A stretch of 63,891 nt of DNA, counting the filler, from Asterionella formosa (lineage: Eukaryota), in the NCBI GenBank assembly GCA_002256025.1. It is 5 parts of 5 records of this genome, joined end to end, with 100 filler letters (N's around TTAATTAATTAA, not from the genome) between each part and the next. Parts side by side here need not be neighbours in the genome. Positions count along the whole stretch, not along the records: positions 39,192 to 52,092 come from NKIB01007086.1; 4 more parts are not named here. One strand, given 5' to 3'. The first letter of the stretch is position 1; each line of letters opens with the position of its first letter. Positions 12,975-60,606 of the stretch are shown here, one piece after another. The translations under genes were made by a program, and so were the position numbers. The notes beneath the pieces were generated by a model. The model did not search any database. It was given only the letters and a program-made list of their open reading frames with translations, and was not told the origin of the DNA.

Positions 12975-13074
12975 NNNNNNNNNNNNNNNNNNNNNNNNNN
13001 NNNNNNNNNNNNNNNNNNTTAATTAATTAANNNNNNNNNNNNNNNNNNNNNNNNNNNNNNNNNNNNNNNNNNNN
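12975..13074. other. Artificial contig linker
   Basis: N44-TTAATTAATTAA-N44, with stops in all six frames. Confidence 0.98.
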
Positions 13075-26046: not shown

Positions 26047-26146
26047 NNNNNNNNNNNNNNNNNNNNNNNNNNNNNNNNNNNNNNNNNNNNTTAATTAATT
26101 AANNNNNNNNNNNNNNNNNNNNNNNNNNNNNNNNNNNNNNNNNNNN
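26047..26146. other. Artificial contig linker
   Basis: N44-TTAATTAATTAA-N44. Confidence 0.98.
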
Positions 26147-39091: not shown

Positions 39092-39191
39092 NNNNNNNNN
39101 NNNNNNNNNNNNNNNNNNNNNNNNNNNNNNNNNNNTTAATTAATTAANNNNNNNNNNNNNNNNNNNNNNNNNNNNNNNNNNNNNNNNNNNN
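39092..39191. other. Artificial contig linker
   Basis: N44-TTAATTAATTAA-N44. Confidence 0.98.
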
Positions 39192-39908
39192 CTCTGCAAT
39201 TGCCTTGGCTCCGTCAACACCAATTGAATTATCATAGAGATAATGTATTGTCAAGACAGTATTGACCTTGAGAGCCTCTGCAATGGCCTTGGCTCCGTCA
39301 ACACCAATTGAATTACCAATGAGATCAAGTCTAGTCAAGACAGAATGAACCTTAAGAGCCTCTGCAATGGCCTTGGCTCCGTCAACACCAATTGAATTAC
39401 CAATGAGATCAAGTCTAGTCAAGACAGTATTAAACTTGAGAGCCTCTGCAATGGCCTTGGCTCCGTCATCACCAATTGAATCATAAGAGAGACTAAGTGT
39501 AGTCAAACTTGGATCATTCGCTTTCAACCGTTTGACATCTTCTTCCCATCCAATCTCTGTTGGAAGTGTGCCTGTGAAAGTATTGTACCTCAATTTTAGA
39601 TCAGTGAGACTTGTCAAGAGTCCAAAGTACTCTGTGGGAAGTATGATGGTTACTAACAAGCCAATTACCAAAAATAGCACCAAGGCAGTCCGCACTTTAC
39701 GTTTACATTGAGCCCTTTCTTCTGCTTTAATGTCAACAACAGAGGCACTGGCAAGTTCTGGATCAACCAGCACTAGCTCAGCATTGAATAGTGTTGCACG
39801 TTCTAGCTGGCCATGTTCACTCCTAATCGCACCAGGACCAGGAAATGAATCAACTCCGAGATTCAAACATTCTGTTTCTGTCTTCTTTCGACGAGAAGCT
39901 CTTAGCAT
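39192..39908 (-). CDS. LRR gene A: TM helix, plant-type LRR fragment and RI/NLRC3-like 28-aa LRR array (truncated by contig end)
   Basis: Open frame from MLRASRR with TM ALVLFLVIGLLVTII, then LTSLTDLKLRYNTFTGTLPTEIG, then WEEDVKRLKANDPSL and GAKAIAEALKVNTVLT repeats. Confidence 0.85.
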
Positions 39909-40448
39909 TGTCAATGTCCTCTTGAATGTAATGAAAGTTGTCTATTGTTTATTCGAGATACTTCTTTGGTTTATTCTAGCAACTTTCTTGTTCGTGTTAA
40001 AACTCCTTTTCTTGTCGTTGTGGTGATTGAAAAGTAATTCTTGTTGTGCCCTTCTGCCAAAGTAGTGTTTCTACCACTTGTCGTAGAATTCTACGCAACT
40101 GATTGAATTACGGGGAGTGATAGAAGGGCTTACTTATATATAAACCTGTTCGAATATGTAATAATAACATTCATTTGCGTGTGTGTCGTATGATGTCGCT
40201 CGTGTTTGTAATTCTTGACTCTCTTGTCCATCATAGTTAGCACCCGAAAACTAATTTCTATACCAACTGTAGTCGTTAAGTTCTACATGAAATCATGACC
40301 ATGATGATGCCGGAACTTTTGTCCATCATGAAATATGTTTGTACATATGCCCTTCGTGATAGTAAACCGGTATCAGTACAATAGGTACATTTATTGGAAA
40401 AATACCGGTGGTACCACAAAGTCAACAGTTATTTTCAACAAATCAAAT

Positions 40449-41598
40449 TTATGACTCAATATTCTTTTTTAATTGGAAGAGACGAGGGATCTCCAGCATC
40501 AAAAGACCCTTTTTGACTTCCGCAAGGCATCCAAAAACTCGGTCTCCAAAGTTTTCATCTATTTCGTCAATCTGCATCTGTTCAGAAGCGGCAGACGGTG
40601 ATCCACATGACCAAGCGTTGTGAGACTTGTTGCCACTGGCCATAGCAGCTTAAACAGCAAGGAGATCTTTAATCAATTGAGCTGCAACATTCTCGTTGCC
40701 GGCCGTGAGGCAAATACGCCACAGAGCGTCAAGAGAGGGACCGCTGGCTGTAAGGGAAGCAGCAGGTGACTGGCGAAGTTTCTTGAACATGAGATAGAAA
40801 CTCTTGTACGCACCCTCACCCAAATCATCCCAACTTACTGCTTGTGAACAGAACAGGTCAAGGAAAGCGGATGTCCTTACCTCATCAGAAAAAGCAGAGG
40901 ATAGGCTTGAATCATTCTGACCCTGAGGGCGAGGCGCTATTGCTGCTTCAAGTTCTGTGAAGTCCCCCAAAAATGATGCGTGTGCAACAAACACCATTAC
41001 CTCCTCCCTTTCAGCAGGAATGTCACACAATTGCCACAGATGTTGAAGTTGTACAATACTTAACTTCACAGTTTCAGAGACACCATTAACATAACGAAGA
41101 ATTCGTAAACGCTAATAGAGAGCGGCAGGGTTGTCCACCTTTATATCAATGCTTCTAATGGAACTCTGCATTGAAATCAACTTCCAAAAAGTGAGACATG
41201 AACAAGGAAAATTTAAATGCAAGGAAAAGTAGGTTCAATACTCACTTTTTTCGGAATAGATGATGACTTCACATCAACCTTATGCCTTGATAAGTAAGCT
41301 GTTAATTCGTTGAAAAGAAGGGACGCCAACCTTCCTTGATTTGCGTTGACAAATGGCCATCGCCTGTTCAGGTGGGCATGCTTCCAACACAAAAACGGTC
41401 AATTGCACCATTTGCAAAGCTAAAAACTCGTCAATGGGGGTACCTCCTGCCAATTGTCCCGCATTCAATGCCAGCGATTTTGTGCACAATTCAAGGAATG
41501 TTTCACGATAAGATCGACCCAATGGGTGTACCTCCTGTCAATTGTCCCCCATTCAATGCCAGCGATTTTGTGCATGATTCAAGGAATGTTTCACGATG
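40449..41598 (-). pseudogene. Internal fragment of a large alpha-helical protein, possibly the USP34/USP24-like deubiquitinase N-terminal region
   Basis: Coding-like segments (RLRILRYV, VKLSIVQLQHLWQLC, SLDALWRICLTAGNENVA) with stops, no start or end, and an 88-bp tandem duplication at 41432-41598. Confidence 0.5.
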
Positions 41599-42400
41599 CG
41601 ATCCCTGGCTCCACCTGGCTGTCGGGTCCTTGTTCATGCCAAGCCCCAACACAGAACTACATGGGCTCTGCATGCTTTTGATGGCTGGTTTGTCAGCCCT
41701 GCTGTGGATTCCTATTGATGCTACCGCATCTGGATGTGGGACACAGCCACATTCCATCAGAATCTGCGATGCATACTGTCTCGTGGTTTCCATCCAAAGT
41801 CCACCTACCTCGTAATTCCTCCCATGACCTCATCACAACCAGTTTGCAGGACATTGCCTATGCTTTGTTACACCCCACCACTCGGTCTCCTGTTGCCCCC
41901 CTCACTGCAACCCACAAAGCTGCTCTCCAGCAGCTCCTTGAAATTCTCTCACCGCCTGGCTGGTCTCACCCCCCTACCCCTCTCTCCCCTCCTGCGTAGC
42001 CCCATTCCATCACTGAGGGTGCCCGGTGCACCAACAGCATCCCCCATCCACCTTATCCCTGATCCTGATGCCCGTTCACATTGCTGGCGATGTCCAACCA
42101 CTGAGGGTGCTTAACCCTACCCCTAACCCTAACCCTACCACCCAAAGTGTGGCTATACCTACCCCTAACCCTTACCTTGCTGACAACCCTACCCCTAACC
42201 CTATCCCTAAGTCCCCTCCAGCCAGTTGCCCCACGATCATTCCAGCACCTCCTCGCACCTACCGCAATGCTGTTATTGCTGTTATGCTGCCCAGTCCTCT
42301 GTCACCTTCCCCTCCGGTCACTTACGAACTACTCCTGCGCCCAAGAGCCGTCGTCACCATAAAAACACACCACTTGCTGCACCACATGCTGGTCTTCCCC
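41597..42400 (+). mobile_element. Diatom Copia (CoDi-like) pol fragment, post-integrase region
   Basis: LAPPGCRVLVHAKPQHRTTWALHAFDGWFVSPA..., RICDA/TVSWFPSKVHLP...LQDIAYALLHP..RSPVAPL...ALQQL, and PLRV repeats. Frameshifted. Confidence 0.8.
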
Positions 42401-43349
42401 ACACCCCATCTTTGCTTGCCAACTTTGCTCTCTCCACCCCTCCTCAAACCTGGACTACTCCCCTGGACACTCATTTTTGTTTCCATGGCACACATTTCCG
42501 CCGGCATTTTCATTCATTGCATGATTTTGTTCATCAAATGAATGAGAATCACTGAGTTCTTCCTCATTTTCAGCGATGTCAGGAGAACAAGCGAAATACG
42601 ATACTGGATGGAAATGTGACTCTGTAGGAATGGAGTATTCATCTGCGAAGAACAACTATTTGGGCTTCCTATCTCTTCCAAAGCAATCTTTCCTTCTTTT
42701 CAATCTCAGCCAGCACTATTGAATAGGCATGCTTCATGATTTTTTCTGGAGTAATATGAATGTACCAGGTATGTGATTAAGGGTGTGGTACTGGTACCTT
42801 GGTACCACCATGATACTACCGGTACAAGACATAAGGAGCAACATACGATAGCAACATACGATAGCAGTTTATGTTTGAACCTTGCTCATTAGTATACCTT
42901 ATACTTCATTGTTCTGGACCCCCCAATGTACACTGCTGTGACTGAATTTGACTGATTTTACTTAAGGGGGGGGGGGCAGGACAATGAAGAGATTTCCCTT
43001 AGAGCATCGCCACCACATCGACCAAATACCAAAGCCAATTGCAGTTGAAAATATCAATACACATCAATTGGTTGAGAAATCTTTTATCAATACCAGTAGT
43101 CGAATTACCTTAAGAGATATGCATAACATAATAGTGTATAACATTCTTACATGACCATCACTCTGGTAAGTACAACAAAGTGCACTTCTACATATTGATA
43201 TCAAAAGACAAACAACCGGTACTAACAAATTCATTCTCATACCAGTTTCCATCTATAGGATTAGTCATACTGTGTGCTACAGTTACATGCCCAGCCCTAG
43301 AAGGGCTGGATGCTCTATAGGGATGACGCATAGAGGCGTCTTCCCTTTT

Positions 43350-43387
43350 CCCTAACCCTAACCCTAACCCTAACCATAACCATAACA
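43350..43387. repeat. Interstitial telomere-type repeat (CCCTAA)4 followed by CCATAA variants
   Basis: CCCTAACCCTAACCCTAACCCTAACCATAACCATAAC. Confidence 0.8.
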
Positions 43388-45990
43388 GATGGTCCAGCAA
43401 TTGGAGTTAGCCTCTTCCAATCCAACTCAAGAAAATGCTGCTTGCTTGAAAGCATTTGATCAAGCTTGTCTTTAAGGGGATCACTTATCAATTCATTGGC
43501 TAATTTCTCAATTGACTCCATTGGAATTGGAAAATCAATACCAGCTGAAATTTTACCAATAGGTGCTGCAAATTTTAGAAGAAACATAGCACATCTGATA
43601 GCAGGTGCAACATCCTCTGTCACCCACTTCCTGGTAACATGCATAGTAAAACAGGCTTCTTAAAACATGCATAGTAAAATAGGCTTCTTAAAAATCAACA
43701 ACTGAATGCTGACAAACAAAGAATATCTGAACCTTGGTTTTTATCCAATGTTTTGGCCATTTCCAGATTGGTTCCCCTTTTTCATTGAGTGGTACAATAT
43801 AGACAATTCTGGAACACCTTGCCTCTACTCCAGCAGTAAGATTAGCAAGGGCCTTTGTAACTCGTGACTCTAGATGAGACATCTTCTCCAGAAATTCTTT
43901 TTGGTTTTGCAAGAGTTTGGACCATTTCTCATTTTCATCTTGTTTCTTCACATGAAGGTCATACATATTGCTAGACAAGATCTGGATCCGGATCATGTCT
44001 TTATTAGAAAAGAACTTGTCAACAACCATTGATTGGGCACTGAATGGTCATATCACCATGATGCATATAGACATGATCCTCAAAGCATTGTCTGCATGTG
44101 AAATGATCTTTGCACATGGAAACAGAAGTTTAACCTTTCCCACACACAAGACAAACAAGTACAGTTCTTTCATTCATATTCATTGTTCCAGTATTTCCAC
44201 TGTATGCTTGTTTGGGATGTGTTAGACTAACTAGCTCACAATAATTATAAAGGTACAATCTGATCAACTTCACTTGTTCACAATAGTTATTTTTGATAAT
44301 TGTTGCATTGCCTATATCAGCTTTGCATTGAAATTCCCACAAAGTAGAATCTTGGCTCACAAGACACATTGTTAAGAACTATCATTCAGGTTATGATTGT
44401 CAAAGGCAATTATCATTTGTGGCAATTCACATCCCCCATTATGATCTGTTGGCCTTACAAGTTGACCCAACTTTTCAACCAATTTATTAGTTGTTGGCCT
44501 GTTCTTGCGATTGTTCTGAATGCAATGAATGGCTAATGAGCACACAGAGGCCAGAATTCCATCTTCCCATTCCTCTGAAAGAGCCCCTCTGAAAGAGGAT
44601 CAACATCCTTTTCCAATTTTGGAATTGCCAAATCCAATGCCTCTGCTGGGTTTCCTTCAAAATCACTTGGTAAGTAGCGTTCAGAGAAATCTCCCAACTT
44701 GGGTATTTTGGAGGTAACCTGTCACAAGCTCAATCATGACAATTCCAAATGAGTAGACATCACATGATGCTTCAAATTTTTTATTTCCTGTCGAATACCA
44801 TGGACATCTGTAGCCGGGTGTCCCAAAGACTCCATCAGTTGATGTGATCTGAACTGAAAAGAAATTTTTATTGGTTTCAATGGTTTCATCCACAAGAACA
44901 AATTTGGCTAGACCACAATCAATCAGCTTGGCAGTATAGTTCTGATCAAGGCAGATAATAGCTGACTTGATATCACGATGAAACAAACCAAGGTTGTCCT
45001 TTGTACCAGTATGAAGGTAGTGGATAGCACAAATAATGTCCGAGATGATTCGAAGTCGTCTCTTACTTGAAAGACTTGATCTTTTTTGTTCACTCATATA
45101 GAATGTCTCAAGCGAACCCTCGGATGCATACTCAAACACAAGGTATTGAATAGGCGAATCAGGGGACAAATGATAGCCATACAAAGTTACAATATTGGGG
45201 TGTCGAAACCTCTTCAATGCCTGAAACAGTATCATGACAGTAGAATGAGAAACATAAAGACTTGAAATGAAATGCAATATTTGATACCACAAATGAGCTC
45301 ACCTGCAATTCTCTTCTAAAAAACCCGAAAACTTCCTCCACCTTCTTTTTCTCAACAGCAATATTGAAAAGAATACATTTAACAGCAAAAACCTGATTCT
45401 CATCCTTGCCTTTGTAGACAACACCAAAAGCTCCTTCACCAAGTTTTCTGTCTTCAGCAAAATTTTTTGTACAATTATTAATGAATTCCACAGGAAGCTT
45501 GATTGGTCTTGAATCCACATTGTCCATAGCTTCCTTCATTTTCGACCGACCTTCAGAAATGAGATAAGTTGTGTTGGCTGCTGTTGGCTTGCGGTTCTTG
45601 TTTTCATCAACCAGCATTTCCATTTCATGTAGTAAAACTTTACCAATTGAATTACTTCCGAGATCAAGTTTAGTCAAGACAGTATTGACCTTGAGAGCCT
45701 CTGCAATGGCCTTGGCTCCGTCATCACCAATTGAATTATATCCGAGATCAAGTTTAGTCAAGACAGTATTGACCTTAAGAGCCTCTGCAATTGCCTTGGC
45801 TCCGTCATCACCAATTGAATTCTTTCTGAGATCAAGTTCAGTCAAGACAGTATTGACCTTGAGAGCCTCTGCAATGGCCTTGGCTCCGTCATCACCAATT
45901 GAATTCTGATAGAGATTAAGTGTAGTCAAACTTGGATCATTCGCTTTCAACCGTTTGACATATTTTTCGAATGTTGTTTTCCAACCTAAT
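43388..45990 (-). pseudogene. LRR gene B: LRR array, IRAK/Pelle-RLK-like Ser/Thr kinase, RING-like Cys cluster and ROCO C-terminal(COR)-like region; frameshifted
   Basis: 4 LRR windows at 45640-45950. Kinase motifs LGEGAFGVVYKG, FAVK, HPNIVTLYGY, HRDIKS, DCGLAK, GTPGY, DVYSFGIVMIELVTG and CIQNNRKNRPT, with an intron at about 45222-45302. Then CLVC...CKDHFTCRQC...CPINGC, and CSRIVYIVP...IFFVCQHS...KWV..DVAPAI. Confidence 0.8.
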
Positions 45991-46834
45991 GCTCTTAGTA
46001 TTTATCTAATTTTATGGAAAACCGACTGGCTGTTGCTTTCCATCTTTTTGCGTTCCATAAAGATAAAGTCCTGGTTCTTCAAAGGATACTGGATGATGCA
46101 CTACCGGTAGCTATTGACACTGACACTGACACTGTAGCATGAGACGACTCTTTGCAGTGACGGATGAGCGATTCCGGCTATTGAGACGGGAAAGTGAACA
46201 TCACATCCGTCTTGGCTCGACCCACCAGCAGAAACGAAAAGGAGGCATCATTCATGATACAAATCCTGCTGATGCTGCAATAAGGAGAAAAGAAGGAGCA
46301 AAAGTACGCCGGAGTCGTCATGGTCATGATGAACAAAAGGATACTACTCGACGAGACCTGACATTGCAACATGCCTGAAGGGAGAAAGCTGTTCAGCTAC
46401 TACAGCAACAACAACTATTAATATCAATGAGACTCGCCAAAAGTCGTTGCACAGGAAAATGGAGAAAATACGATACAAGCATCAACAAAGGAGTCAATCA
46501 CGACCTCCTAGTGAAGTAGTCATTAGGGAGGACTGCGCACCACCACCACCACATCATCACCTTTTTCTGTCAACACCTGAGAAAGTGCGGATCAGGTTTG
46601 ATCATGAGTATCCAGCACCAAGACATAGCTAAGGTCACATGTACAACTACCAGGGATCAGAAACGTATTTTGGAGGCACCAAAGCAGCACCAAGCAATCT
46701 TTTCTCATGACGACAATTTGGAAGAGCATTGGTTGGAAAAAGAAAAAGAGAATAGAACGAGGAGAAAATCACCAGTATGCAATTATATCTTAATCATTTT
46801 TTATCATGACTTCATCAAGAAAACTGATAACATA

Positions 46835-48587
46835 TCACTTATTGTTCTTCCTCCGACATGTTGAGCGTTTTGGCTGTTTTTCCATCTTCATGCTGTCAAG
46901 TTCTTCCTGCAGCTTTGCTATCACATCACTTAAAGCTGTAATTTGTTCTAAAGCTTTCCTTTCTCTTTCCATTACCTCCTTAATGTCCTGAGTATTCCGA
47001 CAAACTTCATCCTTGTAAGCTTCATGATAATTTGCATACATTAGACCGCCATCACTTTGTGGTGTGGGCTTCATCTTGGCCACATTTTGGTCAAGTGCAT
47101 CTAATTTACGCTCAACTTTGGCTCCATAAACTTTCAATCTCTCCACTTCTGCAGCAAGAGAATCCACATCAACTTCACTGGATCCTTGGATGATCAAGGC
47201 GTCTTTATCACTGACCACTTTGGTTTTTTCAGTTACGCAGTATTTGATGTCTTGATTCAAAACAGAACTATTATTTCCATTCATGGTAGTGACTGTATTC
47301 GGAAGTTGAATCTTTGGTAGTTTCTTAACTTCATCAATAGTCATGTTCAAGGTATTTGCAGCAAGACATTCATGCAGGTTTATCTCGAAATTGAAACTAT
47401 CAAAAAGATTGTAGAGAGGAGTATCTACTCCTGGCTTCATTATGTGAGCAAGAGCACAGTCATCAACTGCACATCCTTTTTCCCTTGCCGGTGTGTTTGC
47501 TCTCTCAGCCAGCAACAGCAGCATGCGTGTCTTGAATTTTCCAAACTTGTCATCAATGGTGCCAAATGTTTGGTCAGCATGCAATGCCCGTACCATTATT
47601 CTAGCAAAGCACTCCACATCATACTTGTATGATACATAATTGTGTCTCTTCAGGGAAGCTAGAGTGGCAATATCTGCAACATTAGCAACACCCAGCCACT
47701 GATCTCGACTCTCTTTGAGTTGAACAATCATCTGAAAGAAAGAAAAAATTGTATGCGCACCAGGTAATTTTATTTCATTCTTAACAACCCCGATGGCATT
47801 AGCAACAAGTGCACCAATTTTGGTATTCTTGATCTGCTCAACTTTTTTATTTTCAAGAAGTTGGATGATAAAAGAACGTACAGGACCATTGCTACCAGCT
47901 GCCAGCATGTTTGAGGAAAGACCCTCACAAGCTCCAATCATACAGTTTAGTTTACCAAAAAGTTCTAGATAGAACTCACTGTATTTCTTACAAGAAAGGA
48001 TTGCCTTTCGTTCCTCCTGATCGTCAGAATCCTGGCTTGTTTTTTCATGTAAAATATTCAATATTTCCTGATTCTTGGTTGTGAGTTGATGGTTTGCGGT
48101 CCTTGTTTCCATCAACCAGTTTTTGAATATCATTTAGTAAGTTATTACCAATTGAATTATAATCGACATCAAGTTTAGTCAAGACAGTATTGACCTTGAG
48201 AGCCTCTGCAATGGCCTTGGCTCCGTCAACACCAATTAAATTACCTGCGAGATAAAGTGTAGTCAATACAGTATTGACCTTGAGAGCCTCTGCAATGGCC
48301 TTGGCGCCATTAGCACCAATTGAATTACCTCTGAGATCAAGTGTAGTCAAGAAAGTATTGACCTTGAGAGCCTCTGCAATGGCCTTGGCTCCGTCATCAC
48401 CAATTGAATTCCATCCAAGAGAAAGTGTAGTCAAGACAGTATTGACCTTGAGAGCCTCTGCAATGGCCTTGGCTCCGCCATCACCAATTGAATATTTAAA
48501 GAGATAAAGTTCAGTCAAACTTGGATCATTCGCTTTCAACCGTTTGACATATTTTTCCCATGTATCATCCATTGTCAATGTCGTCAT
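46835..48587 (-). CDS. LRR gene C: 5-window LRR array joined by an apparent frameshift to an about 410-aa uncharacterised helical/coiled-coil domain
   Basis: ORF from MTTLTMDDTWEKYVKRLKANDP to a stop at 48045 overlaps the 432-aa ORF 46835-48133 in another frame. Confidence 0.78.
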
Positions 48588-49584
48588 CTTGAATGTAATG
48601 GAAGTTTTTTGTCTATTGTGATTGACGAGCGACTTTTTTCTTGTTCGAGTGAAAAGTGTTTTTTGTGATAAAACTCCTTTTCTCGTGCTGCCAACATAGT
48701 GTCTCACCCTTTTATCGTAGAATTCTACGTAAAAGATGCAACTCATTATTGCTCTTTCATGATAGATGGAAGATGCCGAAAATTTTGTCAACCCTCACAA
48801 AATCGATACCAATATGCAGTACATATAGCCACATATGATGCATGATGATGATGGTATATGTATACGATTGGACTAGGGGGAGTGATAGAAGGGCTTATAT
48901 AAACCTGTTGGCATACCGGTTTGTAAAAATATCATTCATTTGCTTGTGTGTCGTATCATGTCGCTCCTGTTTGTAATTCTTGATTTCTTGTCCATCATAG
49001 TTAGTACCCAATATAATTTCTTTACAACCTGATGTCGTTGAGTTCTACATGAAAGCTCTAAATTTCTTCATTTTCAGTCATCACCATGATGCCGGAACTT
49101 TTGCCCATCATAATATATGTTTGTACATTTGCCCTTCGTGATATGTGCAGTATATGAGCAATAAAATATGGTGTTGAAAGGGGCTTTGTGTAAATGATAG
49201 AAAACAGTCACACATATCACCTACCGATATTTATCAATATTGCATGTCTTCATATAAATTCATGTTGAATACAGAATGGATCTTGTATGAAAACGTTCCA
49301 TGACTGATGAGGAAATTTTGAGAAATTATGAGCTATTAAAACATAAAACACTTTTTATACAGTGTACTGGTACACCGGTATGAAATTATTGGAAAAAACC
49401 GGTGGTACCACTCCACATGGTATGCAATAATCGTTATGATACCAGTATTTAACATAGATTAATGACCCCGAGGATCATTTTAGCTCACCCGGTATTCTGC
49501 TGTAAGAGGACCGCAATTCATTCCACACGATGATGATTCCATTTCGCATGCATGTCGACCCTGCTCCCGCTACATCTAAGCCGT

Positions 49585-49930
49585 GTATTACGTGAAGTGA
49601 CCATCACGTAAATAAGGCTAGTTGATTTTGAATTGATCACATGAATTAGTTGAATACATCAAAATGCTTACTTGAATATATATATATATATAAATATATA
49701 TATATTATCTGAATACATCACGTTAATTATTTGATCAGAGTATCATGCATGCATTCCTGATCATCACTATATTACGTGATCATCTTCACATAATTTTTTG
49801 AAATACTTCACGTAATTATTTGAAATACTTCACCTAATTATTTGAAATACTTCACTTAATTCTGTAATTTAGTTCACATGCCTTATATTTTTGTTCACGT
49901 AATTCTATAATATAGTTCACGTAATGTATT
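49585..49930. repeat. Array of TTCACGTAATT-type motifs including a 22-bp tandem repeat
   Basis: TTTGAAATACTTCAC(G/C/T)TAATT occurs three times at about 49797-49862, with further direct and inverted CACGT copies. Confidence 0.75.
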
Positions 49931-50046
49931 AAATTTGTTTACCTCATTTAAAAGTACAATCAAATATGTTGATTTCTAATTCAACTGCCGGTATTTCACA
50001 TTACATGGGAAACAAATCTTGATATGCAATCAAACAAAGCAGTTCG

Positions 50047-50532: not shown

Positions 50533-51495
50533 TCAAACTGCACAAGTGAAATGTATAATAGTTTCATGTGTTCTCTTTGTCACCTTGATGGTTGCAAAGA
50601 TTTTGCAAATAAACCACAAGGAAGTCAAGGCACCAACAGTACCCATCACCAAAAACATGGCGAAGCAGAATAAGAACATGTATCCAAAGTAGAGAAGGTA
50701 AGTCATAACCATCTTTGATGCCTCGAGAGTGCGGAACCAGATGATGCTGTAGACGAATGTGTAAAGGGCAGTACTTCCTGAGGTAAAGAAGGAGTACCAC
50801 CACCAATGGTGGTTCTTGGCGCACAACTGGTAGTACACAAGCAAGACTGTGATTTCAGCACAAGTAATGCAAAGAATGAGGAAGACAATCAAAGTAAATC
50901 CAGTAGAACTGGTCCATCCACAAAGAGGTCATGATGAAGAAGAATTCGACATAAGCAGCAGCAAATGGAACTATTCCAGTGAGGGTCATTCCAACCATTG
51001 GGTTAAGCAGAGCCGATAGGCAAATACACACCAAGGTTGCCAAGAAGATCTGAACCCCAGTTCCGATAAAGGCGCAGAAAAACATCGGGTTATTCTGTGG
51101 AGGTCTGAATACGTCGGCGTGAACCAATTTCCAACCAGTCTTATCCACATCTTCGTCCTTTTCTTCGTCCGCCAACGCAGCAATAGCGTTGTAACCAGCA
51201 ATATCCCGCTTCAAGTTACGGACAAGTATAGATACCACAAGAAGAGATAAGAACAAGACCACCAATATGGAGTTGGTGATGGAATACCAACGCACTTGTC
51301 TCGGTCAAGCAAAAGGGAAGTCGATAGTAGTCCTTGGGGATTTGGGTGGTGAATGGAAGTCATGGAATTGACCTTCATGGGAACTTCATCTCCACTTCGG
51401 AAGGTCAGAGACCTGGACGCCAAGAATGTAGAATGCGCGAACGCCTACACTCTGCTTCCGAGAAGGAGTGAGAGGATGGTAGAGATCTTCTTCAT
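50533..51495 (-). pseudogene. TM9SF/nonaspanin (EMP70) pseudogene with large internal deletions
   Basis: Motifs VPMKVNSMTS, RWYSITNS, GWKLVHADVFRPP, GIVPFAAAYVE, HWWWYSF and LYFGYM occur in order but in different frames. The luminal domain and middle TM helices are missing. Confidence 0.88.
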
Positions 51496-52092: not shown

Positions 52093-52192
52093 NNNNNNNN
52101 NNNNNNNNNNNNNNNNNNNNNNNNNNNNNNNNNNNNTTAATTAATTAANNNNNNNNNNNNNNNNNNNNNNNNNNNNNNNNNNNNNNNNNNNN
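52093..52192. other. Artificial contig linker
   Basis: N44-TTAATTAATTAA-N44. Confidence 0.98.
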
Positions 52193-52665: not shown

Positions 52666-54601
52666 ATGAAGTTCGCCCTCGCTGCTGCCACTTTCCTTTT
52701 GGGATGCGATGCATTCAGCCCGCGGGCCGCCTTCAAACCAGTCACTAAACTGTCCAGCATCGCTGACGAATTCGGAATTCCATGCGACGAGGATTGCGCA
52801 CTCGTAAGCTACCCCAATCTTCCTTCCAGTGTGCACCCAGGTGTCGTCAGCGGACAGGCTTTGATTGATTTGCTCAATCACGCGAAGGACAACGGTAAGC
52901 CTAGTCGCAATTAGTGTGGTAGGCCTTTGGCTGGTGCAAGATTCATTAGAAAGGTCTGCCTATGGCATGATCGAAGTGGTTAACATTCAGAGAGAAAAAC
53001 TGCTTCCATGCTATTTTACTTGCTTGCTAGCCGCACCCTGCAGCACTTTTCCCATGATCTCAGGATGAAGATGTTCAGCAGGCACATGTGAATGCTTGCA
53101 TTTTACAATTAAATTCATTGGAATCCGATCACTTTGCTGCTTTTCCACTCTGGTTGGCGTTTTGCAGGTAGACATTGCTTGACATGCTAATTGATGACGT
53201 GAGCATTTTGTGATTCTTATTGCATGTCTCTGCGTGACGTTCAATTTTCTAGTTTCGTTTGAACCTCGCCTACTGACTGGCATTTGCAATGTCGCGTTAA
53301 ACCGTAACCATGTTTCATGGCAAACGCGTTGCTAACACACACGTCCCTCTACCTTACAGGTTACGCTATCCCAGCGGTCAACTGCGTGTCGTCTTCTGGT
53401 ATCAATGCTTGCCTTGAAGCAGCACGAAAGAACGATGCACCAATCATCATTCAATTCTCGGCTGGGGGATCTCAGGTACGCAATCGACAGAGGCCCGCTG
53501 CTGCCCTTGGCATTACACCGATTACTGCTCGCACACTTGCTCACGCTTTTGCCTTGATATCGTGTAGTTCTATGGAGGAAAGGCCCTTAACAACAAAAAC
53601 TACGCAGCTGCAATTGCGGGAGCTGTTTCCGGAGCGTTCCATGTCAGAACAATGGCTGAGCAATACGGAATTCCAGTCATTCTTCACACCGATCATTGCG
53701 CTAAGAAGCTTCTTCCATGGATCGACGGTTTGTTGTCGGCTTCGGAACGCTATTACCAGGACCATGGAGAGCCACTGTTTTCGTCGCACATGATTGATTT
53801 GTCCGAAGAACCACTTGAGGAAAACCTGGAAATTTGCAAGACCTACCTTGAGCGCATGTGCAAGATTGGTCTCTTGCTCGAAATGGAGCTTGGAATCACG
53901 GGAGGAGAGGAAGACGGAGTTGATAACAGTGACGTCGCTCAGGAGGACTTGTACTCGAAACCGGAGGAGATTTACCAGACTTACCAAGAGTTGAGTGAAG
54001 TGTCTCCCTGGTTTACTGTTGCTGCAGCGTTCGGAAATGTCCACGGTGTGTATAGTCCAGGAAATGTCAAACTTGACCCCAAAATTTTGAACAAAGCCCA
54101 GGAGTATATCTGTGATAAGCTTGGAGATGCTGCCCCTGCAAACAAATTGCCAGTTTCCTTTGTCTTCCACGGAGGAAGTGGTTCTGAAGTCAGTGATATC
54201 AGAGAGGCTATCGGATATGGAGTTATCAAGATGAACATTGACACTGATACTCAATGGAGCTACTGGGAGGGTATCAAGCTTTTCGAAGAAAAGTACCATG
54301 ACTACCTCCAGGCCCAAATCGGAAACCCAGAAGGACGTACGTATTATCTATGTTGTCTCGTCCCTGTGTCGCATGATACTTACACCTGTGGCTCACCCCC
54401 TCTTTATTTGCTTTTATAGCCGACAAGCCAAACAAGAAATATTACGATCCTCGTGAATGCTTGCGGGCCGCTGAAGTTCGAACCGTCGAGCGCCTTGGTC
54501 AGTCGTTTGCTGATTTGAAGTGCCAAAACATTTTGGGCCTCGGCGAAATGAACGCAGCTACGAATATTCTCGGGCCACGCCGAGGAGGTCTCCCTGTCTA
54601 A
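52666..54601 (+). CDS. FBA: Plastid-targeted class II fructose-bisphosphate aldolase, 4 exons
   Basis: Presequence MKFALAAATFLLGCDAFSP; motifs GYAIPAVN, HTDHC, FSSHMIDLSEE, ELGITGGEEDGVDN, FGNVHGVY, FHGGSG, KMNIDTDTQW, YDPR. Introns at about 52895-53359, 53476-53568 and 54336-54419. Confidence 0.96.
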
Positions 54602-55084: not shown

Positions 55085-56695
55085 CTATACATGCACTTCT
55101 TCGCCTACCGCTTGTTGAACTACCGTGACCTCACCTTCTTCATCAAAATACAAACTAAGATCAAGGTCACTGCGAGCGATTTGCGACTTTATAAATGGCA
55201 TGTACCCAGTGGCAAATAAAGCGACTAATGAAGCCCCCAGAGTTGCAGAACATGCTCTTGGTTCGTCCGAGAGGGAAACAAGGATCAACGTTGTGGCAAG
55301 AGTAGTCCGGGTAATAGCAACATTCAGGGAAGCAGCCATACATAGTGTGGTAAGTTGAACTGGTATGCCGGGTAGGACGAACGAAATGGCTCTTCCAAAT
55401 GCAGCACCAGCTGAAAACAATGGAAAAATGAAACCTCCTCGGTAGCCTCCACAAACAGAGAAGGTAACAGCCACAAGTTTGGCCACTCCCACGAGTAGGC
55501 ATTTGAATCCCGAGTCCATTTCAAAGTGAAACAATCCACTGGTGGGCCAAACATGAGGCAGAGTCGAGGCTGGACTGAGCGAGGCAATGGTTTGGAACTC
55601 AACTTCACCCCAAAACAATGTATGGGGGATACACACGCCAATCAAGACAATGGCAGATCCACCGACAAGACCCCGATATACTGCTCTCTCATCTCGAAGG
55701 AGATCCATATACTTGAAGAACTCCATGACTTGATAGTGCATCGCAGCAAAAAGGTAGGCAACAATGGCCCCAACGAGTCCAAGCATACCACCAAGTAGAA
55801 TATCAGTTGCTTGTGCGTGCATCAATTTGTTTGCTGTTATGATCCATATGGAATCAATGGGCATTCGCGCTAGTCCACGAAAGACTGCCAGAGTGACTTC
55901 TCCACAAAGGATCGCTTCTACGGCATGCTCAAAATATTCGACACCGAAGCGACTGTTGACTTCGAGAGCGAAGAGACTACCCCCAAGTGGACATCCAAAA
56001 AATGCTGCCAGCGCTCCTGCCATCCCCATCAATGTGTGCTTTCGCACAATGTTGCGGTTCCTGTTCTTGAAGACGCTTTTCGAGACCAGACCACCCAGTG
56101 CTGCACAAATCGCAATCAACGGTGCTTCAGGACCAAGGGAGGCACCGCCAAGGATACTAAATTGCGATGCCACCACCATTGGAAGAACATGGTTCATTGC
56201 AATATATCCCTTTTCATGCACGCATTTGATGGTGTAGGGCAAATCTCCAGGATCTCCGAGGTATACAACTGATAGGCCGAGCAAAACAGCCATGGGAAGG
56301 CAGATGCAAGGAATCCATAAAACGTAGGACCACTCTGGCCAGACGTTGACGACTATTCGCTCAGGAAGTTCATGCCAAAGTAACGCAAGAAGCCAACCAT
56401 TGATTGCATAATAAACAAATGCACAGACACCACAAATAACTCCAATGCATAGAGCATGCACTATACTGTGAGGTAACGTCCCCGGATTAAATTTTCTGGC
56501 ATCATCTATGAATGATGACTGTGTACGAACCAAAATCGATCGAGACTGAGATGTTAACGACTTCGATGGAGATGGATTAGGATCGACGAGTTGAATCGAC
56601 GCTTCGTCCTTGAAAAGTACCTTTGGATGCAATGACCCATACGATGCCGATGCGATCACGAGATGTTCTTGTTCTGGCAGTGGTGATGGCGCCAT
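55085..56695 (-). CDS. CLC-family chloride channel/transporter without CBS domains
   Basis: GASLGPEAP, GMAGALAAFFGCPLGG.LFALE and GYRGGFIFPLF; multiple TM helices; 536 aa. Confidence 0.92.
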   Translation of the reverse strand: MAPSPLPEQEHLVIASASYGSLHPKVLFKDEASIQLVDPNPSPSKSLTSQSRSILVRTQSSFIDDARKFNPGTLPHSIVHALCIGVICGVCAFVYYAINGWLLALLWHELPERIVVNVWPEWSYVLWIPCICLPMAVLLGLSVVYLGDPGDLPYTIKCVHEKGYIAMNHVLPMVVASQFSILGGASLGPEAPLIAICAALGGLVSKSVFKNRNRNIVRKHTLMGMAGALAAFFGCPLGGSLFALEVNSRFGVEYFEHAVEAILCGEVTLAVFRGLARMPIDSIWIITANKLMHAQATDILLGGMLGLVGAIVAYLFAAMHYQVMEFFKYMDLLRDERAVYRGLVGGSAIVLIGVCIPHTLFWGEVEFQTIASLSPASTLPHVWPTSGLFHFEMDSGFKCLLVGVAKLVAVTFSVCGGYRGGFIFPLFSAGAAFGRAISFVLPGIPVQLTTLCMAASLNVAITRTTLATTLILVSLSDEPRACSATLGASLVALFATGYMPFIKSQIARSDLDLSLYFDEEGEVTVVQQAVGEEVHV

Positions 56696-57949
56696 GAGTT
56701 ACGACGAGCATCAGCGACGTTGCTTGTTGAACCTTCAACAGAAAGGTGTAAGCAACAAGTTTGTGAGCAAGGGAAGAACATTTGAAAAAATGGACAATTG
56801 AAGGAAAGTCCGCCACATTATTATTTGATGCTGATGTTTTGATGTTTGGCATCCGATGTTCCAGCATCTGTACCGGCACCCCCTGGTACTGGTATACCTT
56901 TTGACACATCATTCGTCATTCATTCCTCTAAATATGATACCGGGTACACCGCCATCAAATCTTCCTTGTACTATAGCTACCAGAGGTACCAGGTAGTCGG
57001 GTGCTTACCGGTATACATATTCAACGAAGTCGGAACGAGAAGGACAAAAGTATTGGAAGCATCAATCAAATCGAGGCAAACTTCTCGGTGGAAATCGGAA
57101 GCAGTGGAACCCCCATTTACTTAACAAGCAATGATTTTATACACATAAATGAGTATGAATATATATATAACATTTGCGATTCTTTTTCATTTATGTATGT
57201 ATGGGTATTAAAACTGGTACATGCAACGGAAAATGCTATAAGATAAATTGAATCTAGGATACAGGTACCAGGTACCTGGTACCAGGGTACCTGGTAACAG
57301 GACATGACATCTGTCTAATAAAAATAAAGCAAGATACACCGGGTAGTATAGCCCAGCTGTCATCATTAATGCAGATACCACCATCCCTCATATTATGATG
57401 CATCCTCATCCAGGCCAGTCCACTTCTTATTAACATCTACCCTATAGGCAACAAGAATTTAAGAGTTCCTAGTAGCACCAGAAAAGGAGTCAACTGTCTA
57501 TTTCATTGCTTCCAGCAACCATATCTTCATTTGAGGTTCTATAATGCATAATCAAGAATCATTTGATGCTTGCCCTTTAACTGAAAAATCCCTCATTGTA
57601 TGCTTGGTAAGAGTAAGTGGTACCCAAAAATGGGAGTCAGCATGCATCTGAAATGGCTTCAAAGACTGGTGCTATCTTTATTAATTGTTGACTTGCAAAA
57701 GCCATCTTGTATATTGTGTGCAAGAAGAAAGAATACATCATTGCCAACTCCTTGCTAATTGAAGGGCTTCATGAAATCACTGACTTGTAGGTACATGATA
57801 CAAAAAAATCAAAAACAGTTCATCAAGTTGTGGAAAATAATGATATCCTCATGCATTTTATATATTTGAATTATTTATAACCTTAATTGATGATAGTATA
57901 CAGTCACATGATGTGCAATGTAAAGTGTGTCTTTGAACTATGGAAGTGC

Positions 57950-58504: not shown

Positions 58505-59512
58505 CTATAGCTTACTTCTAAAGTTTGGAGCTCTCTTTTCTATAAATGCATCTCGACCCTCCTGAGACTCTTTGGACATGTAGAAAAGCCTAGTCAGTTC
58601 ACCTCCCATTTGAGCAATGCCAGCAGCTCCATCTTCATCTGCATTCAAAGCTGCTTTGCAACAGGCAATTGCTGTGGGTGAGTTCATAATGATTCGTCGA
58701 ACCCACTGAGCAACATGTCCATCAAGCTGCGAGGCAGGATACCACGCATTTATCAAGCCCATCTCACTTGCTTCTTGTGCTGTGTAGTATCGGCAAAGGA
58801 ACCACATTTCCCTGGCTCGCTTTTGCCCAATCAATCTTGCCATGTGCGTTGATCCGTATCCTGCATCAAAGGATCCCATACGCGGTCCTGTTTGTCCAAA
58901 TATGGCATCGTCCGAAGCGAGCGTAATATCAGCAATCATGTGCAAAATGTGCCCTCCACCTACAGCGTATCCTCGAACAACAGCAATAATTGGCTTGGGG
59001 CATCGTCTCATTTGAACTTGTAAATCAAGAACCCGTAGCTTGGGAGCAGCTTCTGTCCCATCTTGATAGCCCCCATCGTTGTCTCGTACTCGTTGATCAC
59101 CTCCAGCGCAAAAAGCTGGTGTGTAATCTTTGGAAAGGTTACTTGTCAAGACGATAACGCCCACCCGAACATCTTCGGTCGCAAGGTCCACTGCCTGTTG
59201 AATCTCACGTATTGTTTGTGGTCGAAAGGCATGTAGTACTTCGGGTCTATTGAATGCAATCCGAGCACACATGTCTTGTGTTGATACCTCGTAGGTAATA
59301 TCTACAAATGCGCCATGGTGAGGTGCTGCTGTCCCTGTCTCATCGACAGGATCAAATCGGATAGGTGCTTTGGAAATTAATGAAAATCCATCGCGATCTT
59401 TCGTTGGAGGAGCAGTTTTGGATGGATTCCTCGCTGCACTCATGGAGGCGACATTTTGGGATTGGGGACTGCTGCTGGCACTCATGGTGGTGGTTGCCGA
59501 AAAGGCAATCAT
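58505..59512 (-). CDS. menB: 1,4-dihydroxy-2-naphthoyl-CoA synthase with a C-terminal PTS1 (SKL)
   Basis: Motifs NRPEVLHAFRPQT, AFCAGGDQRVR, GYAVGGGHILH, FGQTGPRMGSFDAGYGS, GQKRAREMWF and EGRDAF; ends RSKL*. Confidence 0.96.
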   Translation of the reverse strand: MIAFSATTTMSASSSPQSQNVASMSAARNPSKTAPPTKDRDGFSLISKAPIRFDPVDETGTAAPHHGAFVDITYEVSTQDMCARIAFNRPEVLHAFRPQTIREIQQAVDLATEDVRVGVIVLTSNLSKDYTPAFCAGGDQRVRDNDGGYQDGTEAAPKLRVLDLQVQMRRCPKPIIAVVRGYAVGGGHILHMIADITLASDDAIFGQTGPRMGSFDAGYGSTHMARLIGQKRAREMWFLCRYYTAQEASEMGLINAWYPASQLDGHVAQWVRRIIMNSPTAIACCKAALNADEDGAAGIAQMGGELTRLFYMSKESQEGRDAFIEKRAPNFRSKL

Positions 59513-60009
59513 GACAATGAGAAATGGGGGCTTGGCTGTGGCAATGGTGACATGATTGCGTGGCTAGACTAAGATGCCGGCCGGTATGCATACAAGCAAA
59601 AACAAGCATGAATTGCGACAGACCCCCACTTCATTTAACGCTGAGAGAGCTCGGACTTTTCTGCCCATTATCGACTCTTCCGACTACATTTACCTCTTAC
59701 CTGTTTCTGCAATTTATTTTCAAGGTTTTCGTCTCGACACGCAAACTTTGTTTTCCGGAAGGTACGACCATGGTGGCGCAAGAATGAATCTGCGACGTGC
59801 AAACTTATTGAAACTGCGTACACAATTGTATTGTTATAGAGCCAGTTCCATCGGCACGATGAATGGACTGATAAATGCCATTGTAACGACTTCGGATGTT
59901 TCAGTCGAACGAGTCCGGCACATGGGCCGCCTTCCTTAGAAGACACTGATTTGAAGCACTCCTCTCACCATTCGCTGCTTTCCCTTCATTCACAGACTAA
60001 TTTTCTAAC

Positions 60010-60606
60010 ATGGTGAAGCACAATAACGTCGTCCCGAACATCCATTGCCACAAGAAATGGCTCCAGTCGTCTCGTGGCCCGTTGAAGGTCCGCATCAACT
60101 TGAACCAGGCCTCCCGTAAGAAGTCCCGTCGCCTGACTCGTGCCGCCAAAGCCGCCGCTATGGCTCCTCGCCCGCTCAACAAGCTGCGCCCTGTTATCCA
60201 CTGCCCAACACAAAAGTACAGCGCCAAGATTCGCTTGGGACGTGGATTTACTCTCGAGGAGCTAAAGGCTGCTGGCTTCAACCCAAAGTATGCCCAGACT
60301 GTCGGTATCGCCGTTGACGCACGCAGAACCAACCGCTCGAATGAATCTCTTGAGACTAATGTTGCGCGTTTGGAAGAGTACAAGAAGAATTTGGTGGTTT
60401 GGACCAAGAAATCCCAACCTGCCGAGACTCCGGCCCAACTCACTGGAACCATTCAGCCTATTGTCAAGCCTGTTCAGGCTCTTGTTGTTGAGGAAGTCAC
60501 CGCTGACATGAAGAGCTTCAAGGCTTTCACTGCCATGCGTCTTGCAAGACAGGAAACCAAGGTTGCTGGATACCGCAAGTCCGTGGAAAACAGAAAGAAG
60601 GAGTAA
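60010..60606 (+). CDS. RPL13: 60S ribosomal protein L13 (eL13)
   Basis: MVKHNNVVPNIHCHKKW...RLGRGFTLEELKAAG...GIAVDARRTNRSNESL. Confidence 0.97.
   Translation: MVKHNNVVPNIHCHKKWLQSSRGPLKVRINLNQASRKKSRRLTRAAKAAAMAPRPLNKLRPVIHCPTQKYSAKIRLGRGFTLEELKAAGFNPKYAQTVGIAVDARRTNRSNESLETNVARLEEYKKNLVVWTKKSQPAETPAQLTGTIQPIVKPVQALVVEEVTADMKSFKAFTAMRLARQETKVAGYRKSVENRKKE

Follow-up and report, generated by a model that had tools for sequence, protein, structure and literature searches.

The DNA analyzed here (the window, 63,891 nucleotides) comes from the diatom Asterionella formosa (assembly GCA_002256025.1) and consists of five contigs of about 13 kb each, arranged in descending length. These contigs are joined by linkers of the form N44-TTAATTAATTAA-N44 at 12975-13074, 26047-26146, 39092-39191 and 52093-52192, and no feature can be read across the joins. 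We focused on three loci, termed A, B and C, that encode arrays of leucine-rich repeats (LRRs) and all lie on the 12,901-bp contig at 39192-52092 (NKIB01007086.1). A preliminary description, made from the sequence alone, had presented them as a modular LRR receptor family with an invariant scaffold and hypervariable codons on the binding face.

Architecture and predicted fold of the LRR loci

The three loci are co-oriented on the minus strand, and each contains an intronless cassette composed of an N-terminal cap (N-cap), 84-bp repeats encoding 28-residue LRRs of the ribonuclease-inhibitor (RI) type and, in B and C, a C-terminal cap (C-cap). This arrangement, already noted in the preliminary description, was recovered by our searches. 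The 62-nt scaffold was found at 8 places with at most 3 mismatches, all on the minus strand, and 0 of 100 shuffled sequences matched. A search with a 26-nt core identified 10 full units (four in C, three in B and three in A) and an eleventh unit truncated at 39192, and Tandem Repeats Finder returned a period of 84 in all three arrays with 88-91% matches. Read in register, the unit is xLxLxxN-SIGxxGAKAIAEALKVNTVLT. Its first seven codons gave 12 distinct versions among the 13 copies on the contig, exactly as previously listed, and 20 distinct versions among 21 units taken from this contig and three metagenome contigs. The N-cap E.[YD]VKRLKANDPSL was present in all three loci, with 36 nt identical across them, and the C-cap LVD.NK.RKP in B and C. 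The arrays are continuous reading frames. Pfam LRR_6 (PF13516), the RI-type family, has a cut-off of 23.4 bits, and A, B and C scored 60-90 bits. All three loci therefore carry the 28-29-residue repeat LxxLxLxxNxIGxxGAxxLAxaLxxN, above the Pfam cut-off, by which RI-type LRRs are recognized.

The cassette of locus A (39192-39560, minus strand; LRR_6 E = 8.6e-17) comprises the N-cap at 39501-39560 (...GWEEDVKRLKANDPSLT), units A1-A3 at 39249-39500 and a partial A4. Position 39192, previously given as the boundary of the locus, is the end of the contig, which falls inside the scaffold. Upstream, the N-terminal part (39561-39908, minus strand) starts at ATG 39908 and contains a basic stretch, a hydrophobic segment (ALVLFLVIGLLVTIILP) that we took by eye for a transmembrane anchor, and a plant-type LRR (LTDLKLRYNTFTGTLPTEIG) that adjoins the RI-type cassette and gave weak LRR_1/LRR_8 matches at residues 91-120. 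The 5' leader of A (39909-40095) is homologous to that of C (48573-48760, both on the minus strand); about 170 nt are held in common, including the blocks CGTAGAATTCTACGA, CGAACAAGAAA and CATTACATTCAAGA.

Locus B (cassette 45588-45983, minus strand; LRR_6 E = 2.2e-26) contains the N-cap at 45924-45983, units B1-B3 at 45672-45923, and a last repeat start KLDLGSN with the C-cap LVDENKNRKP at 45588-45671; no in-frame start codon was found upstream of the N-cap. The cassette is followed by a linker and a Ser/Thr kinase (44375-45587, minus strand; Pkinase E = 4.7e-25). Exon 1 of the kinase region extends to 45303, a phase-0 GT-AG intron of 82 nt occupies 45221-45302, and exon 2 begins at 45220; the term intronless thus holds for the cassette but not for the kinase. 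As assembled, the C-lobe shows frame shifts near 44690 and near 44590 (the latter at a 14-nt tandem duplication) and a stop at 44681, and in an intact relative from a metagenome (L002) the kinase region is read in one frame. The nearest solved structures of the kinase were PBL2, CERK1, RIPK, BIK1, SOBIR1, BRI1, IRAK1 and IRAK4 (E 1.7e-19 to 1e-11). Locus C (48045-48572, minus strand; LRR_6 E = 2.3e-26) starts at ATG 48572 (MDDTWEKYVKRLKANDPSL), contains units C1-C4 at 48177-48512, and ends with KLDVDYN, the C-cap LVDGNKDRKP and a stop at 48045. By eye, with no predictor used, we noticed neither a signal peptide nor a transmembrane segment in B and C, and no hydrophobic segment among the 60 residues that link C-cap and kinase in B.

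A single-sequence AlphaFold model of the C cassette (pLDDT 81.6) assigned codons 1-3 of each unit to strands and codons 10-23 to helices, with the N-cap forming an N-terminal helix; the predicted model is a horseshoe in which short beta strands alternate with long alpha helices. Foldseek matched it at probability 1.00 to the LRRs of NOD2, NLRP, RI and tropomodulin. The NOD2 LRR aligned at 35% identity and an rmsd of 1.4 over 126 columns, and the matches also included tropomodulin/leiomodin (tropomodulin TM-score 0.72-0.76), NLRP1/3, ribonuclease inhibitor and RanGAP. In RI-type LRRs, the positions of the strand and of the beta-alpha loop build the concave face. In the model, the variable codons are predicted to sit on the beta strand and in the loop after it, in agreement with the earlier proposal that they lie on the binding side. 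The Foldseek relatives are all cytosolic proteins, and the RI/NOD2/tropomodulin class is typical of the cytosol. Since B combines RI-type LRRs with the apparent lack of a transmembrane segment, its protein is probably cytosolic. The term receptor, in the sense of a surface receptor, was therefore not borne out for B and C.

Distribution of variation within the repeat

We compared the 10 full units of the contig, and a set of 21 units formed by these 10 and 11 units from the three metagenome contigs. The x codons were defined as codons 1, 3, 5 and 6 (beta strand) and codons 11 and 12 (beta-alpha loop, the xx of IGxxG). In the 10 units, 14 of the 18 nucleotide sites in the six x codons were polymorphic, compared with 13 of 66 elsewhere (Fisher p = 9e-6), and 70% of the pairwise differences fell in these codons, which make up 21% of the sites. 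An even spread over the repeat, which the preliminary description had named as contradicting it, was thus not observed. That description had placed the differences in the seven-codon segment. Within it, only codons 1, 3, 5 and 6 varied, and the interleaved L, L and N codons were nearly fixed even at synonymous sites (CTT in 10/10, CTC in 9/10 and AAT in 8/10 of the contig units; 21/21, 18/21 and 18/21 in the larger set). Likewise, the scaffold was nearly identical including synonymous sites, as had been stated, except that codons 11 and 12, which lie inside the 62-nt scaffold, vary.

The third bases of the x codons showed a further regularity. Codon 1 was NNA and codon 3 was NNT in all 21 units while the encoded amino acid changed, indicating that the x codons differ by recent changes at first and second positions on a young background. 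By Nei-Gojobori counting in the 10 units, the proportion of nonsynonymous differences (pN) at x codons 1, 3, 5 and 6 was 0.58, whereas scaffold codons 13-28 gave a proportion of synonymous differences (pS) of 0.12 and a pN of 0.023; the 21 units gave the same picture. Yardsticks from the same family all fell below the pN of the x codons: comparison of B with L002 gave a pS of 0.29 for one kinase exon and 0.06 for the other, and comparison of the B and C C-caps gave 0.19. Scaffold pS was 0.07-0.15 within arrays and 0.04-0.15 between arrays or contigs of different samples, with no structure by locus. These results showed that replacement change at the x codons exceeded every synonymous rate measured, in line with the diversified binding face proposed at the outset.

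Mean amino-acid identity between repeats was 0.77 in C, 0.87 in B and 0.79 in A, and nucleotide identity was 0.86-0.91; outside the x codons, repeats differed at 1.3-4.7 of 66 nucleotides, and the arrays span 84-140 amino acids. When two synonymous variants shared between units (codon 16 GCA and codon 21 CTT) were compared in the manner of a four-gamete test, only three haplotypes were present, which is uninformative. Shuffling or gene conversion, as originally proposed, would fit these data; a recent burst of duplication would fit them too, and the two are not separable here.

These patterns might instead belong to an ordinary, recently amplified family of scaffold or adaptor LRRs, in which the x positions are unconstrained, purifying selection and gene conversion maintain the scaffold, and neither diversifying selection nor recognition plays a part. 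RI-type LRRs generally keep their helices conserved and vary at strand positions, frameshifts are present in B and C, and the raised pN/pS elsewhere in the genes (kinase exons 0.59 and 1.98, C-cap 1.27) suggests relaxed constraint or decaying copies. Neutral x codons, however, should not outpace synonymous sites, and their pN of 0.58 stood against a pS of 0.04-0.29 wherever it was measured. Tract-wise conversion could not have spared the x codons without selection, given that the L, L and N codons lying between them stay fixed down to their fourfold sites. The invariant third base of x codon 1 and of x codon 3 also argues against this explanation, which we consider unlikely.

Programmed or somatic diversification is extremely unlikely. 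It would proceed by cassette copying, as in the variable lymphocyte receptors (VLRs) of lampreys, or by mutagenesis of the x codons by a diversity-generating retroelement (DGR). Its appeal lies in appearance only, in that nearly random codons occupy defined places in an otherwise constant DNA scaffold. We rejected VLR-type assembly, since the loci are complete germline frames in the assembly and not an incomplete gene flanked by cassettes. A DGR target was rejected as well: all 12 substitution types occurred at the x codons, with no adenine specificity, and no reverse transcriptase was met among the ORFs scanned, which were part of those on the contig.

Partner domains, family size and assembly

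The cassette was found with several partners: an RLK/Pelle/IRAK-like kinase in B, an all-alpha domain with a coiled coil in C, the transmembrane anchor in A, and ankyrin repeats in a metagenome locus (L001). A metagenome scan with a 35-nt scaffold pattern yielded three loci, L001-L003, from independent assemblies, in which the design was seen again, with the succession of LRR, C-cap and kinase included. In L003, a transmembrane gene similar to that of A stands next to an RI-type array. A 523-amino-acid metagenome protein (P0241) carries near-identical armadillo-type (ARM) repeats, NKVTI..AGGITTILSAMKTHSSNA.VQ..GC.AL.NLA, followed by the linker and kinase N-lobe of locus B at 80% identity, so that internally conserved sensor repeats of another kind are likewise coupled to the kinase module. 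The family is modular on both sides, with several sensor repeats and several output domains, which extends the modularity first described.

The putative partner of C is a 432-amino-acid ORF (46835-48133, minus strand) that overlaps the end of the C LRR ORF by 89 nt in another frame. Its model is all-alpha with a C-terminal coiled coil (pLDDT 72.5), and 54 relatives were found at E <= 1e-3. The domain follows ankyrin repeats in 7 of the 14 longer relatives scanned and a kinase in 1 of them, and in P0256 a C-cap (LVDRNKNRKP) lies in frame upstream of a domain of this type. The arrangement in P0256 suggests that gene C most likely consisted originally of the cassette and the 432-amino-acid domain, now separated by a frameshift. 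The ORF had no Pfam family above cut-off, and Foldseek against the PDB gave no match to its model at E <= 0.001. VIA-align matched the C-terminal coiled coil only (Z 5.2-5.5), which is a common arrangement, and the hits in a protein atlas were clusters without names that scored 0.87-0.88 and serve as a lead only. Databases label the relatives of the cassette itself 'NOD3/NLRC3'. Near-identical RI-type arrays were also seen in four proteins of uncultured protists with other codon usage (P0004, P0009, P0014 and P0087; KVNAVLT or KSNTSLT variants), whose repeats differ chiefly at strand positions, and this design may be widespread in aquatic protists.

The window or part of it was contained in 20 of 24 listed runs, which came from 15 studies, included 6 RNA runs and were labeled as algae, freshwater or lake metagenomes. 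Four runs were aligned at 90% likeness in the form of contigs, which do not convey strand, transcript ends or rare variants; summed depth is the total over all similar contigs and not a copy number. Between 1448 and 6300 contigs per run matched the contig at 39192-52092 at >=90%. Genic bins close by (44795-45225, 46088-46518 and 47381-47811) were exceeded in summed depth by the three LRR bins by a factor of 4 to about 560 across DNA and polyA RNA runs. In the DNA run X2, the LRR bins reached 50,760, 19,149 and 54,419 and the genic bins 4,359, 1,901 and 1,620; in the polyA RNA run X18, the corresponding values were 264,877, 26,181 and 61,902, and 915, 1,308 and 472. The scaffold is thus common to thousands of DNA and RNA contigs, which suggests a large family. 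Run X18 contains this strain, since some of its contigs match other parts of the contig without mismatch, such as a 984-nt polyA RNA contig at 41565-42548; the ORF within it (42017-42538) has no Pfam family. Many RNA contigs part from the sequence of locus A at 39591, which indicates that the junction between its plant-type LRR and its RI-type cassette is rare or chimeric. The transmembrane and plant-type LRR part of A (39623-40053) reached summed RNA depths of 80,469 in run X16 and 103,621 in X18; apparently, plant-type LRR proteins with a membrane anchor form another large expressed family, of which this part is a member.

The assembly looks short-read, and the internal repeat number and order, as well as the pairing of N-cap with C-cap, are not trustworthy. 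In fungal repeats of high internal conservation (HIC), long reads recover alleles whereas Illumina assemblies omit or create repeats (PMC12222747). If the arrays were short-read mosaics of many paralogues throughout, the loci, the repeat order and the domain partners would all be unreal. The contig end inside the scaffold of A, the thousands of contigs that carry the scaffold, and the dropped or invented units of comparable fungal assemblies fit such an origin, as do the joints between loci that are also present in contigs of other runs (possibly paralogues or k = 31 chimeras). In the housekeeping gene TM9SF/EMP70 (50533-51304, minus strand, split across two overlapping frames), an extra C behind 50580 in all four runs compared points to an assembly indel error here or to another strain. 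Against a wholesale artefact, the variable 21 nt with their flanking scaffold fit in one read, so that their variety is real, and the N-cap and first unit, as well as the last unit, C-cap and kinase, are connected through unique sequence. These links recur in L001-L003, which repeat the design, and in P0256, where the C-cap is followed by the alpha domain. We therefore regard a purely artefactual origin as very unlikely. What can be trusted, as far as these comparisons go, is the existence and diversity of the variable segments, the links from N-cap to first unit and from last unit to C-cap to partner, and modularity. The objection of a short-read mosaic, foreseen in the preliminary description, thus applies to internal order but not to segment variety or to the flanking links.

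Several other features were observed around the loci. A RING-finger-like frame (CLVCGKG-stop-TSVSMCKDHFTCRQCFEDHVYMHHGDMTIQCPINGC; 44000-44180, minus strand) with an in-frame TAA lies just downstream of the B kinase, and a frame change after it leads to ORFs at 43688-44047 and 43315-43659, which have no Pfam family. Six CCCTAA units of telomere type at 43350-43386 are interstitial and lie inside an ORF, where they read VRVRVR. An 88-bp tandem duplication (1.9 copies) at 41432-41597 is followed by a proline-rich low-complexity region, over which the 984-nt contig of X18 extends. An AT microsatellite and 22-bp tandem repeats at 49536-49966 showed by far the highest summed DNA depth in X2 (227,827), and this region is probably a dispersed repeat. 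The best named relative of the TM9SF protein was from Fragilaria crotonensis (83% identity), followed by Mayamaea, Pseudo-nitzschia, Nitzschia and Odontella, all diatoms; the organism is accordingly a pennate diatom, which agreed with the diatom host assumed at the outset. On the other contigs, ORFs of ordinary housekeeping type were named by eye only: a PP2A A-subunit-like protein with HEAT repeats (23595-24293), a class II fructose-bisphosphate aldolase-like protein (53568-54419), a chloride-channel-like protein (55085-56698), an enoyl-CoA hydratase/naphthoate synthase-like protein (58505-59563) and a ribosomal protein L13e-like protein (60001-60606).

A candidate family of germline-encoded binders

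The best explanation for the three loci is that they are members of a large, lineage-specific, germline-encoded gene family of a freshwater pennate diatom. Probably, though with considerable room for doubt, this family encodes compact and mostly cytosolic LRR binders, whose near-identical repeats stem from recent duplication and recombination and whose six surface codons are under diversifying selection. Each gene would encode a binding module in which 3 to 7 RI-type LRRs, each 28 residues long, lie between an N-terminal capping helix and a C-terminal cap. The near-identity of the repeats at the DNA level, within an array, between genes and between samples, would result from recent duplication of units together with ongoing unequal recombination or gene conversion. 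Replacement changes build up faster than synonymous ones at four codons of the concave strand and two of the beta-alpha loop, a pattern that suggests diversifying selection on ligand specificity. The module is swapped among output domains, including an RLK/Pelle/IRAK-like kinase, an alpha-helical coiled-coil domain, ankyrin repeats and a transmembrane anchor. The proteins may form an inherited panel of intracellular binders or sensors of variable protein ligands, most plausibly non-self or pathogen-derived, and would signal via the attached domain.

Several observations weigh against this reading. Frameshifts or stops break B, C and the RING-like ORF at 44000-44180, C is split in this way from its C-terminal domain, and A is cut short by the contig end. 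Where B and C have unique sequence, the RNA contigs of every run depart from it at certain sites (for example at 44903, 45500, 45566 and 48141), so the RNA signal of the family is not assignable to these three copies. These copies may be pseudogenes or misassembled, and paralogues or alleles may be the expressed ones. The pN and pS values come from a small sample (21 units from four contigs, non-independent and possibly recombining), and Nei-Gojobori counts are rough near saturation and carry no site-model or recombination-aware correction. The repeats compared are paralogous positions, each of which may hold an old, fixed specificity; diversity was seen, and ongoing turnover was not. Other eukaryotes show the same tendency: in Capsaspora, haptophytes and uncultured protists, a set of 92 proteins with 282 repeats was likewise most variable at positions 3, 5, 6 and 8. 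A fixed scaffold with variable x positions is thus generic to this LRR class across eukaryotes at the protein level, and the special feature here is the nucleotide-level identity only. The diatom units, at a mean identity of 77-87% within arrays, lie around or below the threshold used for fungal HIC repeats (>85% identity over >=100 amino acids; PMC4986451). Finally, an immune role is plausible from the kinase class and the selection pattern, but it is less likely than not.

The closest analogy to the diatom family is offered by the fungal HIC repeats, namely the WD40 repeats of het-d, het-e and nwd in Podospora and ANK and TPR repeats elsewhere (PMC4986451, PMC12222747). As here, these are near-identical at the DNA level apart from a few hypervariable codons on the binding surface, several kinds of sensor repeat are combined with different effector domains, and the arrays are hard for short reads. 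No LRR motifs turned up in the survey of fungal HIC proteins, whereas the diatom repeats are RI-type LRRs. Unlike the fungal NLRs (NOD-like receptors), the diatom arrays are short (3-7 units), and no NACHT or NB-ARC family was found in A, B, C or the neighboring ORFs scanned. Polymorphism in repeat number and alleles and concerted evolution are fungal HIC traits as well, for which the diatom comparison is one between contigs. By analogy, the diatom family appears HIC-like in mechanism and not an NLR.

The likeness in mechanism to plant R genes and to the ROCO LRRs of Ectocarpus appears looser (PMC3341825). Ectocarpus is also a stramenopile alga with expanded, clustered LRR genes and positively selected sites on the concave face (PMC3341825; PMC11378527). 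Its ROCO genes have one exon per LRR with exon shuffling, whereas the diatom arrays have no introns, as the preliminary description had pointed out, and belong to the 28-residue RI class; no Roc or COR match in Pfam was found in the scanned ORFs of the contig, and a ROCO gene was rejected on these grounds. Plant LRR receptor-like kinases (RLKs) and receptor-like cytoplasmic kinases place an LRR domain N-terminal to an RLK/Pelle-class kinase, as in B. The plant RLKs have extracellular, plant-specific 24-residue LRRs and a single transmembrane segment, and we rejected a plant-type LRR receptor kinase as a model for B, since the kinase class fits but the LRR type and the linker do not. Animal NOD2, NLRC3 and NLRP proteins and tropomodulin/leiomodin share the fold and repeat class of the diatom cassette, and tropomodulin is also a short five-repeat domain with capping helices. 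The LRRs of animal NLRs, however, are not near-identical to one another at the DNA level and accompany a NACHT domain that is absent from the diatom loci, and tropomodulin is a single-copy actin capper whereas the diatom cassette is a diversified family. Diatom genome papers describe LRR families with tandem duplication, NLRC3-annotated families that have expanded or contracted, two LRR kinases with Ka:Ks > 1, and FST outliers among NLRC3-annotated genes (PMC7335047, PMC12803021, PMC5485032, 10.1101/2024.03.20.585933); in the passages covered, they do not mention nucleotide-identical scaffolds, codon-specific hypervariability or modularity of cassette and partner. Full-text searching of the diatom literature, outside subscription journals and supplements, gave no account of this pattern, and supplementary tables may list such families.

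The same diversification could also serve conspecific or environmental ligands, as in mating or gamete recognition, allorecognition or bacterial signaling. Two LRR receptor-like kinases of Pseudo-nitzschia multistriata are regulated in sexual reproduction and show Ka:Ks > 1 (PMC5485032), LRR tandem expansions in Seminavis are tied to signaling and temperature acclimatization (PMC7335047), and the fungal HIC repeats, the nearest analogue, work in allorecognition (PMC12222747). Conversely, the nearest solved relatives of the B kinase are mainly immune or symbiosis kinases (PBL2, CERK1, BIK1, SOBIR1 and IRAK), which is a resemblance only, and a preprint on one freshwater diatom reports NLRC3-annotated genes among FST outliers and terms them defence genes (10.1101/2024.03.20.585933). 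The present data do not discriminate between ligand classes. We regard this alternative as improbable; with respect to the immune role, mating or allorecognition is an equal rival (PMC5485032).

For the favored reading, in which the loci belong to a germline family of diversified binders, a broader form can be proposed. Diatoms may possess a NOD-less germline recognition repertoire of hundreds to thousands of expressed genes, in which sensors made of internally conserved repeats (RI-LRR, ARM and ankyrin) share a few output modules, namely the RLK/Pelle/IRAK-like kinase and the alpha-helical coiled-coil domain. Selection would diversify the binding face and recombination would reshuffle the repeats, and the whole would be a third independent invention of an immune or allorecognition system of the NLR or R-gene kind, in the main group of aquatic primary producers. 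We consider this possible but doubtful.

Little is understood of how diatoms recognize hostile chytrids, oomycetes, viruses and bacteria or members of their own species, and no receptor repertoire has been defined. The large, expressed family described here offers concrete candidates, as small binders with a codon-specific hypervariable face and an attached immune-type kinase. Fungi, plants and brown algae have immune-type receptors with this pattern, for which our searches gave no description in diatoms. The shared scaffold provides a DNA handle for retrieving the whole repertoire; it is also a warning that short-read assembly, in diatom genomes as in metagenome bins, gets genes of this sort wrong. 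If the favored reading is true, the design of identical repeats with a hypervariable face would reach RI-type LRRs, beyond the WD40, ANK and TPR repeats of fungi.

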